Source: a virus. Taken from it: DNA of 64,000 nt. Position 1 is the stretch's first letter. Every line of letters starts with the position of its first letter. The stretch covers positions 32,001-96,000 of the IMG/VR virus record IMGVR_UViG_3300025138_000014; one strand, given 5' to 3'. A program made the position numbers and the translations under genes. The notes beneath the pieces were generated by a model. The model saw only the letters and a list, made by a program, of their open reading frames with translations, did not search any database and was not told the DNA's origin. Positions 3,765 through 55,850 of this stretch are shown here, piece after piece.

Positions 3765-4056
3765 CGAAAAAAATATTCTTTGTAAGGAAAGAGACTTGAC
3801 TGCAGAATTATATAATCTTTGGATTACTAAACTGCATGACTTTGAAGATATTCCAGAAAAATACGAACAGTATATGAAAATGATTGATAATCTTGAACCT
3901 TATGCAAATATGCTTAAAGAAGCCATAAGAGAAAAGAATAGTGAAATATGTAAACACTATGGAGTTAATTCTATTTCAGATACACCTCATTCAGTAGAAT
4001 GTATAAACAAATATGGTTATGATAGACCTAATGGAGCCGTACTGGAAAGAGGATGA
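3739..4056 (+). CDS. Hypothetical protein
   Basis: Packed operon ORF overlapping its neighbours; helical; no motif; start uncertain. Confidence 0.55.
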   Translation: MTLIQTIVDEKNILCKERDLTAELYNLWITKLHDFEDIPEKYEQYMKMIDNLEPYANMLKEAIREKNSEICKHYGVNSISDTPHSVECINKYGYDRPNGAVLERG

Positions 4057-4526
4057 TTGCTTTTGACACAGATCTGCTTGTAAATGGATATAAAGTTTTT
4101 GAGGATAAAAAAATACTCTTTACTTTAGGTAAAATACCTGATATAAAAGAATGGGAAGGAGATCAAGTAAAGTCTCCAAAAGGCTTTGATCTCCGACTAG
4201 CTCAAAATTATATTAACAATAAGTATGTTGCGCCAGTATTTGGTGGAGCAGTATTTGGTTATAGTAATATATGGAGTGGAACAGATAGCAATAGTAAAGA
4301 ATGGCACAATGATTTAATTGAAGGTTTTAATCTATTTTTTATGTATTACCTAAGTGATATAACAGAAGGCGGAGAGTTATGTTTCAGAGTTAATGGTAAA
4401 GAAACTGGTTCAATTCAGCCTAAGAAAGATATGCTGGTAATGGGATCTCAAGAAAGATACGTTGAGCATAAAGTGAACGACTGCAATCAGGAAAGAATAG
4501 TGTGTAACTTTGGATACAATATATAA
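4053..4526 (+). CDS. 2OG-Fe(II) oxygenase superfamily protein
   Basis: WHND, GGELCF, HKV...RIV; resembles 3216-3764. Confidence 0.75.
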   Translation: MIAFDTDLLVNGYKVFEDKKILFTLGKIPDIKEWEGDQVKSPKGFDLRLAQNYINNKYVAPVFGGAVFGYSNIWSGTDSNSKEWHNDLIEGFNLFFMYYLSDITEGGELCFRVNGKETGSIQPKKDMLVMGSQERYVEHKVNDCNQERIVCNFGYNI

Positions 4527-31576: not shown

Positions 31577-32503
31577 ATGGCACGTAACTTATATTTTTCG
31601 GCTGGACATAAACAAGAGCAAAATCTATATGAAGATTTAATCATTGAATCTTTAAAGATTTATGGTCAAGACCTATATTACTTGCCAAGAGATTTAGTGA
31701 AAATAGATGATGTATTCAGAGAGGATCCAGCATCTAAATTTAACTCATCTTATATGATGGAAATGTATGTTGATAATCAAGAAGGATATGACGGAGAAGG
31801 AGATTTATTCTCAAAGTTCGGAATAGAAATCAGAGATGCTATTAATATCACTTTATCACGTAAAAGATGGGAAAATGCAGTAAAGAGATATGATAATGAA
31901 ATAAAAGGCGCTAGACCATTTGAGGGTGATTTAATCTTTGTTCCATTTTCTAAAAAGATATTTCAGATTATGCACGTTGAACATGAGCAACCTTTTTATC
32001 AACTTGGTAATTTACCTATCTATAAACTACGTTGCGAAATGTTTGAATATTCTGATCAAGACTTTGATACAGGTCTTGACGTTATTCAAGATATTGAAAC
32101 ACAAAGATCATACACATTTAATCTTAAACTAGACAGCTCGGGTGGTGGTTGGAGTGTAGGTGAACAAGTAACACAAACCTTAGCAACTGGAGTTATTATG
32201 TCGGGGGAAGTTTCCGCTTATAACGATTCAGATAAAATTGTTAGTATTATCCATGCTGGCGCTAACGACGGTAAATATCACCAGTTTGTCACAGGGCTTA
32301 ATCTAATCGGAGGCACTGATCTAAGACCAGATCAGCCAGGCACTGATGTACGCAATACAATTAATGTTAATCAAGTAACTGAAAGCCATGGTGATTCTGA
32401 TATGAATACATCTGGTGTTTTTCAGAATACTATATTTAAAAATGAAACAACAGGGTTCCTAGACTTTTCGGAGTCTAATCCATTCGGCGAGGTTGATCAA
32501 TAA
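31577..32503 (+). CDS. gp14: Neck protein gp14
   Basis: EQ.LYEDL..ESLKIYGQD.YYLPR; SKFG; RPFEGDLI; DFSESNPFG. Confidence 0.92.
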   Translation: MARNLYFSAGHKQEQNLYEDLIIESLKIYGQDLYYLPRDLVKIDDVFREDPASKFNSSYMMEMYVDNQEGYDGEGDLFSKFGIEIRDAINITLSRKRWENAVKRYDNEIKGARPFEGDLIFVPFSKKIFQIMHVEHEQPFYQLGNLPIYKLRCEMFEYSDQDFDTGLDVIQDIETQRSYTFNLKLDSSGGGWSVGEQVTQTLATGVIMSGEVSAYNDSDKIVSIIHAGANDGKYHQFVTGLNLIGGTDLRPDQPGTDVRNTINVNQVTESHGDSDMNTSGVFQNTIFKNETTGFLDFSESNPFGEVDQ

Positions 32504-51270: not shown

Positions 51271-52224
51271 ATGGATTTGAGTACACGTGAGAATGAATTC
51301 CTATGGTGTGAAAAGTATCGGCCCCAAAAGGTATCAGATTGTATCTTGCCTGAGGGGCTGAAAAATACCTTTGAAACACTTGTTAAAAAAGGTGAAATTC
51401 CAAACATGCTATTCACCGGCACAGCAGGTCTTGGTAAAACTACAGTAGCAAAAGCTATTTGTAATGAACTGGACCTAGACTATATACTGATTAACGGATC
51501 CGAAGAGGGTAACATTGATACGCTCCGTGGAAAGATTAAGCAGTTTGCATCTTCAATCAGCCTTCAAGGTGGTTATAAAGTTGTTATCCTAGATGAAGCG
51601 GACTATCTAAATCCGCAGAGTACACAACCAGCACTACGTGGTTTCATTGAAGAATTTTCTAATAATTGTAGATTTATTTTAACCTGCAATTTTAAAAATC
51701 GTATTATTGAACCTTTACATTCCAGATGTGGTGTGTATGAGTTTAATACTACCAAGAAAGAAATGGCCAAGTTATGCGAGAATTTCTTTTTCCGTTTCCG
51801 GCAGATATTGGAAAACGAGTATGTCGGATTTGAACAAAAAGATGCCGCCGATCTTATTGTCAAATATGCACCGGATTGGCGACGGGTACTTAACGAAGCC
51901 CAGCGTTCTGGAGTTAATGGCCAATTGGTCCTTAGCAGTCGGGTGGTGGGCAATAGTGATCAGTATAATCTTCTGTTTCAATTGTTAAAAGCAAAAGATT
52001 TTAAAAAGATGCGCACATGGGTAGTTAATAATATGGATGTAGATGCAGCCGCTATCTTCCGTGGTATATATGATAATATGCAGACAAGTGTTTCACAGGG
52101 TTCTATACCTCAGCTTGTTCTTATTCTAGCAGACTACCAATATAAGAATGCCTTTGTAGCAGATCACGAATTAAATATTGTGGCATGTTGTACAGAAATC
52201 ATGGCTAACGTGGAGTTCACATGA
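51271..52224 (+). CDS. gp44: Clamp loader large subunit gp44
   Basis: LWCEKYRP; GTAGLGKTT; ILDEAD; PLHSRC. Confidence 0.95.
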   Translation: MDLSTRENEFLWCEKYRPQKVSDCILPEGLKNTFETLVKKGEIPNMLFTGTAGLGKTTVAKAICNELDLDYILINGSEEGNIDTLRGKIKQFASSISLQGGYKVVILDEADYLNPQSTQPALRGFIEEFSNNCRFILTCNFKNRIIEPLHSRCGVYEFNTTKKEMAKLCENFFFRFRQILENEYVGFEQKDAADLIVKYAPDWRRVLNEAQRSGVNGQLVLSSRVVGNSDQYNLLFQLLKAKDFKKMRTWVVNNMDVDAAAIFRGIYDNMQTSVSQGSIPQLVLILADYQYKNAFVADHELNIVACCTEIMANVEFT

Positions 52225-53324
52225 GAATTGATCCAGATACAAAACTAGACTATAAAGATGTGTTATTAAGTCCTAAGAGGTCTACACTAACAAGTCGCAA
52301 TGAAGTAGACCTACGGCGTGAATTTTCATTTAGGTCAACTTCAGCCCAATATTTTGGCGTACCAATTATAGCAGCTAATATGGACGGCGTTGGTACTTTT
52401 GAAATGTCTGATAAACTTGGATCAAGAGGTTTATTCACTTGTCTTAATAAAAATTATAATGTAATGGAATACGTTGCTTATTTTGATGATCCAGATATGC
52501 CATTAGATCGTAAAGAATTTTCAGCATATACAATGGGTATTAGCGATAAAGATATGGCTGACTTCCTTAGTGTATATGAAATGTGCGATGGCAATATTAA
52601 ATATGTTTGCGTGGATGTAGCTAACGGCTACACACAAAGATTTATTACATTTGTTAAAGAATTAAAGAGATATTTTCCAACCCTAATTATTATTGCTGGT
52701 AATGTTGTTACAGCAAATCAAACAGAGGAGTTAATTTTAAATGGAGCCGATATCGTTAAAATTGGGATTGGTCCTGGTTCTGTTTGTACTACTCGCTTAC
52801 AGACTGGCGTTGGTTACCCTCAGCTTTCTGCAGTTATCGAGTGCGCTGATGCTGCTCATGGTTTGGGTGGGCATATCATTGCTGATGGTGGTTGCAACAC
52901 TCCAGCTGATGTAGTAAAAGCATTTGCAGGTGGAGCTGATTTTGTTATGCTTGGAGGTATGCTATCTGGTCACGATGAAGGCGGCGGAGAAGTTATTACC
53001 AAAGTCTATGAAACAAATGAAGTTACTCTCATGGCTGACGGTTTTTATGATTCAGTATATGAAGAAAAGAACTTTGTAAAATTTTATGGAATGAGTTCAG
53101 ATACTGCTAATGTTAAACACAACGGTGGGCTTAAAGATTATCGTAGTTCAGAAGGCCGTGAAGTTTTAGTTCCTTATCGAGGTCTTGTAGATGATACACT
53201 TCAAGATATTCTTGGTGGACTTAGAAGTGCGTGTACTTATGTTGGAGCAGAACAAATAAAAAATCTAAGTAAATGTACTACATTTATTCGTTGTAATGAT
53301 ACTCATAATAGGGTTTACGAATGA
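52221..53324 (+). CDS. guaC: GMP reductase
   Basis: KLDYKDVLL.PKRSTL.SR; AANMDGVGTFEM; DVANGY; GIGPGSVCTTR; FYGMSS; YRSSEGR. Confidence 0.9.
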   Translation: MRIDPDTKLDYKDVLLSPKRSTLTSRNEVDLRREFSFRSTSAQYFGVPIIAANMDGVGTFEMSDKLGSRGLFTCLNKNYNVMEYVAYFDDPDMPLDRKEFSAYTMGISDKDMADFLSVYEMCDGNIKYVCVDVANGYTQRFITFVKELKRYFPTLIIIAGNVVTANQTEELILNGADIVKIGIGPGSVCTTRLQTGVGYPQLSAVIECADAAHGLGGHIIADGGCNTPADVVKAFAGGADFVMLGGMLSGHDEGGGEVITKVYETNEVTLMADGFYDSVYEEKNFVKFYGMSSDTANVKHNGGLKDYRSSEGREVLVPYRGLVDDTLQDILGGLRSACTYVGAEQIKNLSKCTTFIRCNDTHNRVYE

Positions 53325-53587
53325 TAAAAAATCTGTTATTATATACAAAAGACAACTGCATCTATTGCCACTTTCTAAAAGAAAAGTTAGATGACTGGGA
53401 ATTTAAATATGATGTAGTACATAATGTTGGCTTACCTGCCGATCATAAAACTTATCCACAATTGTATTATGAAGGTATAGATGTTCAAAGAGGTTCTTCT
53501 ACTGATCTAACAAGAGATGATCTAATGAATAGAATTGAAAGAATAGAATGGCCAAATATGGATAGCGGAGTAGAAGGTAAATTATGA
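53321..53587 (+). CDS. Glutaredoxin-like protein
   Basis: YTKDNCIYC; TYPQ. Confidence 0.8.
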   Translation: MIKNLLLYTKDNCIYCHFLKEKLDDWEFKYDVVHNVGLPADHKTYPQLYYEGIDVQRGSSTDLTRDDLMNRIERIEWPNMDSGVEGKL

Positions 53588-54410: not shown

Positions 54411-54418
54411 TATAAATA
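54411..54418 (+). promoter_or_regulatory. T4-type late promoter for the hsp20-atpE cassette
   Basis: Intergenic TATAAATA. Confidence 0.75.
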
Positions 54419-54421
54419 GAC

Positions 54422-54481
54422 TTGTAGAGCGGATAATCCGGCTACAATTTAATCTTGCTTGCTCAAAAGGAGATAACAATG
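54422..54481 (+). promoter_or_regulatory. ROSE-like RNA thermometer in the hsp20 5' UTR
   Basis: Two hairpins; in the 3' one AUCUUGCUU pairs with AAGGAGAU (SD) with a bulged G. Confidence 0.7.
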
Positions 54482-54937
54482 ACAGGCTTACACACACTCT
54501 TCCCTCGCTCATCTTTTGTAGGATTTGATCATCTATTCAACGAACTAGAATGGACGGCAAAACATGCTCAGGATCATTACCCACCCCACAATATTATTAA
54601 GACAGATGAATCAGAATATTTGATTGAACTTGCTATTGCTGGGTTTTCCAAAGATGAAATTAACGTTGAAGTTAAAGATAGAACTTTGACTGTTAAAGGG
54701 GAACATATTTCTAAAGGTCGTGACTTTATTCATCGTGGTATTTCTACGAAGAAATTTAAGCGCACTTTTCGGCTGTCTGAACATGTAAATGTAAACGGAG
54801 CAGATATTCAAGACGGTATTCTGGCAATTCAGTTGCAGTATATTATCCCAGAAGAAATGCGTCCTCGTAAAATCAATATTGGTCAAACGAGGAATTCAAA
54901 TGACACAGACAAAGAACTACTTAACGAAGGCCGTTAA
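54479..54937 (+). CDS. Small heat-shock protein Hsp20 (IbpA-like)
   Basis: GFD.LF; YPPHNI; IELA.AGF; HRGIS...F.RTF.L; DGIL.I.L. Confidence 0.92.
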   Translation: MTGLHTLFPRSSFVGFDHLFNELEWTAKHAQDHYPPHNIIKTDESEYLIELAIAGFSKDEINVEVKDRTLTVKGEHISKGRDFIHRGISTKKFKRTFRLSEHVNVNGADIQDGILAIQLQYIIPEEMRPRKINIGQTRNSNDTDKELLNEGR

Positions 54938-55184
54938 GTTACCACTCAACATACTAAAATCAATTTGGAACGGCATTAAATTAAGTGCTGATATCCGTCA
55001 AACACGAGGTGAACTTTCAAAACTAAATGATGCTGAGTTAAGAGACATCGGTATAACTAGAGGTGATATTGAAGCGATAGCAAGAGGCGATGCTGATTTA
55101 CTACGTTCCGCAGTAAGGAATAAATTTTATTTACCAGATGGTCCTATAAGTTATGTTAATCCTAATTTAAAAGGATGGAGCTAA
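54900..55184 (+). CDS. DUF1127 (YjiS-like) protein
   Basis: RQTRGELSKLNDAELRDIGITRGDI. Confidence 0.8.
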   Translation: MTQTKNYLTKAVKLPLNILKSIWNGIKLSADIRQTRGELSKLNDAELRDIGITRGDIEAIARGDADLLRSAVRNKFYLPDGPISYVNPNLKGWS

Positions 55185-55366
55185 TGACAGCTATCAATAC
55201 AAACATATCTTTCTCTTCGCCATTATCGGACTTGTGGTTAGCATTCGAACGTTGGTTCCAGATAGTGGGATACAGCCGAGCGGCAGCGGAGTTGGCAAGA
55301 CATGGTCAATTAGAAGCAGCCAAAATGTGCATGATGGAAGTGAAAAGAGTACGTAATGGAAGGTGA
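55184..55366 (+). CDS. Small hypothetical protein
   Basis: TAATG coupling; [13 protein letters not shown] motif. Confidence 0.6.
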
Positions 55367-55577
55367 TATCGCAACAATGGGCGCTCTAATTGGCGCTGGA
55401 CTAGCAACGTTCGGAATGGGTGGCGCCGCCATCGCAGTAGGAATGATTGTTGGTAGTGTACTTAAAGTTATGCCCAAGAAGCCTGACTCTGGTACTATGT
55501 TTGTTGGTATTGCTTTTGCAGAAGCATTAGGCATCTTTGCCTTTCTAACAGCATTGTTACTTATGTTCGCAGTCTAA
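55356..55577 (+). CDS. atpE: F0 ATP synthase subunit c homolog with an altered loop
   Basis: Two TM helices; IGAGLA...; [11 protein letters not shown] with the proton-binding Glu; ends LLLMFAV. Confidence 0.85.
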
Positions 55578-55789
55578 TGGCTGAGAATCATTTTAGTGCA
55601 GAAGTGGTACAACGCATAGGCTTTTACTCTTTTGCAACAATGTCTTCATTAATAGTAATATGTATTGCCTTTGGGTTTTATGCAGTATTACAAAAATTTA
55701 ATGAACCAAGTTGGAAAGAGGCATGTATTACCAATGGCGGAGTTCCCGTCCAGATTGCAAAGTCAACATTCGACTGTAAAGTCATATAA
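55577..55789 (+). CDS. Small membrane protein
   Basis: TAATG coupling; one TM helix, then C...GG...C. Confidence 0.6.
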   Translation: MAENHFSAEVVQRIGFYSFATMSSLIVICIAFGFYAVLQKFNEPSWKEACITNGGVPVQIAKSTFDCKVI

Positions 55790-55793
55790 AATA

Positions 55794-55817
55794 AAAAGAG
55801 GGCTTCGGCCCTCTTTT
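55794..55817 (+). terminator. Rho-independent (possibly bidirectional) terminator
   Basis: AAAAGAGGG-cttcgg-CCCTCTTTT. Confidence 0.85.
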
Positions 55818-55821
55818 GCTA

Positions 55822-55850
55822 TTTACAACACCGTCATAATAGTTTATAAT
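55822..55850 (+). promoter_or_regulatory. Sigma70-type promoter for gp43
   Basis: TTTACA-N17-TATAAT. Confidence 0.85.

Follow-up and report, generated by a model that had tools for sequence, protein, structure and literature searches.

Why does a phage carry an ATP synthase c subunit whose cytoplasmic loop no longer contains the residues that couple the rotor to F1? The R-N-P loop of c subunits couples to the gamma/epsilon foot of F1, and few features of F-type ATP synthases are as conserved as the R-(N/Q)-P loop. The gene in question was located in the window, a stretch of 64,000 nucleotides covering positions 32,001 to 96,000 of the IMG/VR virus record IMGVR_UViG_3300025138_000014. The features of the locus are listed in Table 1.

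Table 1. Positions of the c-subunit variant, its functional sites and the neighbouring features in the window
Feature	Position	Strand	Basis or remark
TATAAATA, T4-type late-promoter-like motif	54411..54418	+	about 40 nt upstream of hsp20
hsp20, putative head of the unit	54479..54937	+	PF00011, E 2.7e-17; ORF open from 54455
DUF1127 (YjiS-like), first gene of the overlapping string	54900..55184	+	PF06568, E 2.8e-10
orf63-family small protein	55184..55366	+	probable start 55184; ORF open from 55175
c-subunit variant, 73 aa, Rhodobacterales atpE-derived	55356..55577	+	PF00137 and 5dn6_J matches
remodelled cytoplasmic loop, codons of M39-P-K-K-P-D44	55470..55487	+	alignments; AF2 loop 39-44
E56 codon GAA, ion-carrying carboxylate in FAEAL	55521..55523	+	read from the sequence
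orf70TM, single-pass membrane protein	55577..55789	+	constant neighbour of the c variant
GC-rich hairpin GAGGGC-ttcg-GCCCTC with A4/T4 flanks, terminator-like	55794..55817	.	directly after orf70TM

The identity of the protein was examined by profile, structure and residue. The 73-aa ORF matched PF00137 (ATP-synt_C) over profile positions 1-60 of 60, with E 3.8e-11 and 43.5 bits against a cut-off of 24. Its closest solved structure was 5dn6_J, the c subunit of Paracoccus denitrificans (E 1.2e-14), and 25 PDB c subunits matched it at E<=1e-3. Apart from PF00137 no Pfam family matched the c variant, and PHROGs contained no family for it. The AF2 model, made with 29 relatives as input, consisted of H2-38, a loop at 39-44 and H45-72 (pLDDT 80.7), which predicted the two-helix transmembrane hairpin expected of AtpE. 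The segment A53-F61, which includes E56, was invariant in 29 viral sequences and the same as in Roseovarius AtpE. In the glycine motif of helix 1, G13, G15, G22 and G33 were invariant in these 29 sequences, and G9 and G20 were nearly so. The window protein read AIAVG where the host reads AVGVG, a change of one motif Gly to Ala. It contained no Arg. The earlier note had described a c subunit with intact helices, the Glu in FAEAL and no Arg at all, and this description held, with the loop reading MPKKPD. Full-hairpin homology, the helix-2 carboxylate and the glycine-rich helix-1 motif of AtpE were all present, whereas the R-(N/Q)-P loop and the atp operon context were not. Judged by its sequence, the c variant is a PF00137 member by descent.

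The c variant was then compared with its host counterparts. Among cellular proteins the top relative was from Roseovarius (67%). The window protein was identical to Roseovarius AtpE at 26/33 positions of helix 1 and 24/27 positions of helix 2, and at 2/18 positions of the loop region. This corresponded to 79-89% identity in the helices and 67-71% over the whole protein. The best 80 cellular loci were all from Rhodobacterales, and their products had 78 aa, RNP, a MEGD start and an LLLMFAV-like end; the earlier note had given the MEGD start, the LLLMFAV end and the RNP loop for Rhodobacteraceae AtpE, correctly for these loci. In an even sample of 201 Alphaproteobacteria, 3 genomes had a protein of more than 50% identity to the c variant, and the others were mostly at 30-47%.

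The loop was where the viral proteins departed from the host. MPKKPD stood in place of the host L-R-N-P-S-A, and the hairpin of the window protein was 5 residues shorter, on the F1 side. When 186 distinct sequences were aligned, R-(N/Q)-P was found in 82/82 cellular-type rows and in 0/104 viral-type rows. The alignment with host AtpE and other viral copies, which the earlier note had proposed as a check, thus gave host-like helices and a loop of another kind. The viral rows comprised three types. Type A, with the loop K-x-M-P-K-K-x-D and 73-76 aa, included the window protein; none of its 64 rows had R-(N/Q)-P, and all 64 had a basic residue 1-2 positions past Pro. Type C, with A-(L/M)-P-H-R-S and the host protein length of 78 aa, had 19 rows, none with R-(N/Q)-P and all 19 with such a basic residue. 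Type B had a loop without Pro and 76-77 aa; R-(N/Q)-P was found in none of its 21 rows and the basic residue in 2. No cellular-type row (0 of the 82) had a basic residue at that place. In type A, P40 was nearly invariant, and K or R was present within two residues of Pro in 64/64 sequences. The conserved viral loop motif was hydrophobic-Pro-(K/H)-(K/R), and the residue after PKK varied between P, A, T, S and G. An alternative HMMER alignment set K-K-P against R-N-P.

Selection on the loop was estimated from pooled Nei-Gojobori dN/dS of 40 distinct type-A coding sequences, with dS about 0.9. The value was 0.083 for the whole gene, 0.097 for the N-terminus and helix 1, 0.087 for the loop and 0.038 for helix 2. 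The loop value indicated that the new loop was a maintained feature, not drift. On the row counts and these estimates, the replaced loop is virus-specific and under purifying selection. The earlier note had called the c subunit one lacking the conserved Arg loop. The Arg loop was indeed absent; however, it was not merely missing, and a conserved new motif was present instead. The note had also named a loop shared with cellular homologs as a finding that would speak against its reading. This was looked for with the pattern KVMPKKPD in a scan of cellular genomes, one genome per species for 185,579 prokaryote species, and no copy of the viral loop was found in them.

The c variant belonged to a large family, with three loop grades, to which the earlier note had not extended. 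It was present at 78 IMG/VR viral loci, and a second scan gave 6 further contigs, for at least 84 contigs in all. This second IMG/VR scan was seeded with the Roseovarius RNP AtpE and returned 62 type A, 5 type C and 0 RNP sequences. About 100 distinct metagenomic sequences of loop-altered c were found. A metagenomic protein search gave dozens of 73-76-aa relatives at 80-92% identity, followed by the two other loop grades and then by 78-aa Rhodobacterales AtpE at 60-68%. Type-A copies were also present in the Tara <0.22 um fraction. In a tblastn search of 50,697 GenBank phage records with the c protein, no match was obtained, and no cultured carrier is known. A quick IQ-TREE maximum-likelihood search on this short alignment, with midpoint rooting, gave a single branch that split RNP from non-RNP rows (SH-aLRT 87-94), with type C basal, then B, and A nested. 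These results would fit a single acquisition of the gene from a Rhodobacterales host, after which the loop was remodelled and shortened step by step. GC3 was 35% in the c variant, 28% in the phage gp43 and 76% in Roseovarius atpE. It was near that of gp43 and far from that of the host gene, and the c variant is therefore a long-standing resident of the phage genome.

One type-A protein was attributed to a bacterium in NCBI, and it was the only one. This protein, HAW04348.1 (P0257; loci L166-L169), is labelled 'F0F1 ATP synthase subunit C [Saprospirales bacterium]' and comes from a MAG. The contigs that encode it carried gp46, gp45, gp44, gp62, regA, hsp20, the cassette and gp43. The T4-like genes around it meant that a phage contig had been mis-binned in the MAG and that the annotation was misleading. 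Across the collections scanned, the c variant is restricted to phage contigs. A separate case was L102, from a MAG labelled Limisphaerales (Verrucomicrobiota), which carried a Paracoccaceae-type atpE near-identical to that of Gemmobacter/Rhodobacter; it was probably a mis-binned contig as well.

The statement that no other atp genes lay in the window held beyond it. The source record, an IMG/VR virus of 151 kb with an estimated completeness of 71%, had one PF00137 match, and the whole 151 kb had no match to PF00119 (a), PF00430 (b), PF00006 (alpha/beta), PF00231 (gamma) or PF02823 (epsilon). A relative of 221 kb, rated 100% complete (G002), had exactly one PF00137 match and no match to PF00119, PF00430, PF00231 or PF02823, the four profiles searched there besides PF00137. 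The cellular context of atpE is atpI-B-E-F'-F.

The surroundings of the gene were those of a T4-like phage. Clamp loader genes, regA (PF01818, E 3.5e-44) and hsp20 were located upstream, and a gp43-type DNA polymerase was located downstream. The slot from regA/hsp20 to gp43 held the c variant on dozens of independent contigs. Judged by gp43, the closest complete phage was C48C1 (Kyanoviridae, 59% identity), in which the regA-hsp20-gp43 slot was present and the cassette was absent. Two further observations were made on the backbone. A GMP reductase (367 aa) and a glutaredoxin-like ORF were found between the clamp-loader genes (window 52221-53587), and related loci had Rv2179c-like exonuclease or glutaredoxin genes in the GMP reductase slot. 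Because its contents varied in this way, the slot appeared to be a hypervariable insertion point. In addition, in L004 (3927-4495) and also in L019, L030, L036 and L043, genes for a conserved 44-aa protein and for a cupredoxin with a signal peptide came after the cassette. This cupredoxin (PF00127, E 1.7e-13; PHROG 515, 'PetE plastocyanine') was present two genes downstream on many cassette-bearing contigs; it was found in G003 and was absent from the source record and from G002. It was a second respiratory-chain-type gene near the c variant.

The gene had been called lone, and this did not hold. It belonged to an overlapping string of four genes, DUF1127-orf63-c-orf70TM, which recurred, with differing flanks, in practically every locus of the T4-like lineage. 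DUF1127 preceded the c variant in almost all of these loci. In the window, the orf63 start overlapped the DUF1127 stop (TAATG), and the end of orf63 overlapped the c start by 11 nt. The orf63 family had the motif G-Y-S-R-A-A-A-E-L-x-R-x-G, some members had a TM helix, and no PHROG family matched. Its 2074 metagenomic homologues, all unnamed, made it broader than the c family and therefore probably not specific to the c variant. The family appears to be widespread and undescribed in marine phages. DUF1127 and orf63 were considered as specific partners of the c variant, and this was downgraded because of the 2074 orf63 homologues and because both genes were missing from one locus (L160, described below).

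The transcription signals were read from the same region. The hsp20 ATG at 54479 was preceded by AAGGAG. In hsp20-context loci, including the type C loci L067 and L077, TATAAATA was located 886-960 nt upstream of the c start, and its position upstream of hsp20 was retained across diverged loci of this context. The motif was not enriched in the window (14 found and 11 expected). Late expression of the unit from hsp20 to orf70TM is plausible from this arrangement. The earlier note had proposed that the protein was made late, and the retained position gave this modest support, with the lack of enrichment on the other side. A sigma-70-type promoter, TTTACA-17-TATAAT with 11/12 matches, was also seen between the hairpin and gp43 (window 55822-55850). 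It suggests that the polymerase is transcribed early or in the middle phase, apart from the hsp20-to-orf70TM unit.

The most constant neighbour was orf70TM (55577-55789), a partner gene that the earlier note had not included. Where a locus reached far enough, an orf70TM homologue adjoined the c gene in essentially every case. In the window its start overlapped the c stop (TAATG), and from this reading the two genes are translationally coupled there. The family was small: of 1.84 billion representatives, 7 clusters belonged to it. It matched nothing in Pfam or PHROGs, and a feature search of the ESM Atlas returned only unnamed viral clusters, below 0.9. Its members had a single TM helix and a conserved juxtamembrane motif, and most of them also had a C-terminal domain, C-x4-GGVP...FDCK, with two conserved Cys. 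The AF2 model had H3-41, H46-52 and a beta-hairpin at 55-69 (pLDDT 77.8). An origin of orf70TM from host AtpI, b' or b was considered and rejected, with hhalign values of 0.2-2.7% against the Roseovarius proteins. Prediction of a complex of 3 c copies with orf70TM gave a score of 0.00, which was below the mark and spoke neither for nor against contact. A truncated form of orf70TM (49-59 aa) was seen in L025, L031-L035 and L041-L062; it kept the N-terminal motif and the TM helix without GGVP...FDCK and co-occurred with the loop subtype K-(Y/H)-M-P-K-K-(A/T)-D-N-S.

The association of the two genes was also seen in a different genome. In L160 (positions 3774-4237 of a seawater contig from ENA, 8998 bp), an orf70TM homologue was located immediately upstream of the c variant. 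The backbone was unrelated and encoded an Eco57I/N6 methylase, ClpP, WYL_2 and a 168-aa Gly-rich secreted protein, and the locus had neither DUF1127 nor orf63. Its c loop, A-L-S-N-P-R-N, was intermediate, with the Arg now after Pro instead of before it. L160 is an independent branch of the module of c and orf70TM, or else one that split off very early. Since the pair persisted there with the order reversed, the core module was independent of gene order and backbone.

Based on the above results, we propose that the viral c subunit would fit the host Fo and would be unable to couple F1, and would thereby act as an uncoupler or a proton leak. We hold this reading tentatively, with somewhat less than even confidence. 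The viral c would insert into the host inner membrane. With membrane surfaces that match those of the host, it would either enter host c-rings or assemble a separate ring on the host a/b stator. The simplest reason for keeping host-like membrane surfaces would be the need to fit neighbouring c and/or subunit a. Rotors containing viral c would be unable to grip F1, and proton flow through Fo would be disconnected from ATP synthesis and hydrolysis. The outcome would be an uncoupled or leaky Fo, in which orf70TM might serve as an assembly, gating or plugging partner. A more specific form, in which a c-ring docks on the host a/b stator, cannot bind F1 and is gated or plugged by orf70TM, is possible but doubtful. 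Candidate gains for the phage would be a PMF lowered or clamped late in infection, respiration freed from PMF control, a superinfection block or the setting of lysis time.

The background on the bacterial enzyme bears on this proposal in both directions. Fo stripped of F1 conducts protons. Work from the Fillingame laboratory reportedly established that R41 of E. coli c is essential for F1 coupling and that R41K, R41H and Q42E bind F1 and are uncoupled. The earlier note had suggested a dominant-negative or uncoupling subunit, and this was borne out in part: a selected, virus-specific loop on host-like helices with the Glu is the pattern that such a subunit would be predicted to have. Its further suggestion, a role in lysis timing, gained no specific support. 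However, the Lys residues, or in type C the Arg two positions past Pro, might still touch the host gamma/epsilon, and the alternative HMMER alignment with K-K-P opposite R-N-P points the same way. Uncoupling also seems costly to a phage, which needs ATP. E. coli is known to avoid assembling an open Fo without F1, so that a viral ring turning freely on the host stator might not assemble. In addition, the Gly to Ala change in the helix-1 motif could hinder mixing with host subunits.

A working c subunit is an unlikely alternative. The phage would supply the most-used subunit of the enzyme, or shift ring size and the H+/ATP ratio, and its loop would still couple. The conserved helices, glycine motif and Glu are consistent with this, as are the positive charges retained in the loop and the alignment that places KKP opposite RNP. 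G-to-A variation is seen in the glycine motif, and changes of this kind alter ring stoichiometry. However, the Pro of KKP is not conserved, the hairpin is shortened by 5 residues on the F1 side, and R41K is non-functional in E. coli. Three loop solutions (A, B and C) occur, each without the Arg position. Phages often carry host energy genes, and atp a, b and c were reported on a cyanophage scaffold (PMC3877843). A supplementary copy would nevertheless be expected to keep the R-N/Q-P motif, which was universal in the cellular rows and absent from the viral ones. The virus-specific selected loop, together with the host-like helices and Glu, argues against a plain spare AtpE.

The pair might instead have left the ATP synthase altogether, with c and orf70TM forming a pore, a holin-like timer or a superinfection-exclusion pair. 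In size and topology they are comparable to T4 Imm/Sp or to holin/antiholin pairs. The two genes encode a 2-TM and a 1-TM protein and stay together across backbones and gene orders, which would suit such a device, and so would the late-promoter-like motif upstream and a partner with a small extramembrane domain and two conserved Cys. To our knowledge, no holin has been recognised in these phages. We nevertheless regard this explanation as quite unlikely. It leaves unexplained why helix 2 and its Glu are identical to the host at saturated synonymous divergence and why the F1-facing loop alone was rebuilt, and no similarity to holin, Imm or Sp was found in Pfam or PHROGs.

It is improbable that the ring serves as a rotor with a new rider, in which the loop would bind, in place of F1, some phage protein or a different host protein, and rotation or docking would serve another purpose. 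Besides the C-terminal domain of orf70TM, candidates would be the orf63-family protein and DUF1127. The loop has the conservation of a motif and is no degenerate linker, and the four overlapping genes travel together in the T4-like lineage, both of which favour a binding partner. Against this, the orf63 family outnumbers the c family by far, L160 has neither DUF1127 nor orf63, and a subgroup of orf70TM has no C-terminal domain. We know of no precedent for a c-ring with a new rider. Finally, a relic without function or a product of misassembly, for instance a host fragment joined into a chimeric contig, would agree with the plain 'F0F1 ATP synthase subunit C' label of public databases, but this reading is effectively refuted by an ORF intact in all loci, a dN/dS of 0.08, GC3 ameliorated to phage values, the same slot on dozens of contigs and presence in the complete 221-kb G002.

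The preferred reading, an uncoupling or leaking c subunit, would have several consequences. A large family in which the loop is replaced and the Fo-fitting parts are kept is a natural experiment on rotor-to-F1 coupling. If uncoupling or leak is true, abundant ocean phages would manipulate the host PMF directly, beyond metabolism or photosynthesis. This would bear on the energetics of infected cells, lysis timing and superinfection, and a function would be assigned to the orphan membrane protein orf70TM. If the uncoupling rotor is true, it would be the first natural dominant-negative ATP synthase subunit and a new class of phage takeover. Public annotation pipelines treat these genes as ordinary AtpE of bacteria, once within a bacterial MAG. 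The literature searched, which covered sources outside subscription, contained no account of a viral c subunit with an altered loop or of its orf70TM partner; phage-borne Fo genes were mentioned there once, on the cyanophage scaffold described below.

The c variant was compared with five known systems. Rhodobacterales AtpE, as in the c12 ring of Paracoccus denitrificans (PDB 5DN6), shares the MEGD start, the glycine-rich helix 1, the LLLMFAV helix 2 and the Glu. In contrast, the viral protein has the M-P-K-K-x-D loop, the hairpin shorter by 5 residues, an orphan membrane protein as a neighbour and a location on phage DNA. The E. coli uncE mutants R41K, R41H and Q42E resemble it in that the change is confined to the cytoplasmic loop and the proton-binding hairpin is intact, and their phenotype is the one predicted here. 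They are laboratory point mutants, however, whereas the viral loop is wholly rebuilt, shortened, fixed by selection and natural, and is known here from sequence.

Bioenergetic genes on phage DNA and leaking c-rings have been described in other settings. On the GOS cyanophage scaffold JCVI_SCAF_1096628171668, atp genes for a, b and c were reported (Sharon et al. 2011, cited in PMC3877843), which likewise places Fo genes on marine T4-like phage DNA. According to that report, the scaffold has several Fo subunits of cyanobacterial type, whereas the c found here is single and alphaproteobacterial, its loop is altered and its partner is new. The idea of a c-ring leak in the mitochondrial permeability transition (PMC12325954) is similar in that a ring freed of F1 leaks ions and small single-pass subunits are located at the ring. 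That idea is eukaryotic and contested and concerns a canonical RNP c, whereas the viral ring would be hard-wired to be free of F1. Lastly, cyanophage petE and PTOX are also host-derived bioenergetic genes kept by marine T4-like phages. Their catalytic features are kept, whereas the c variant has lost its defining functional motif.
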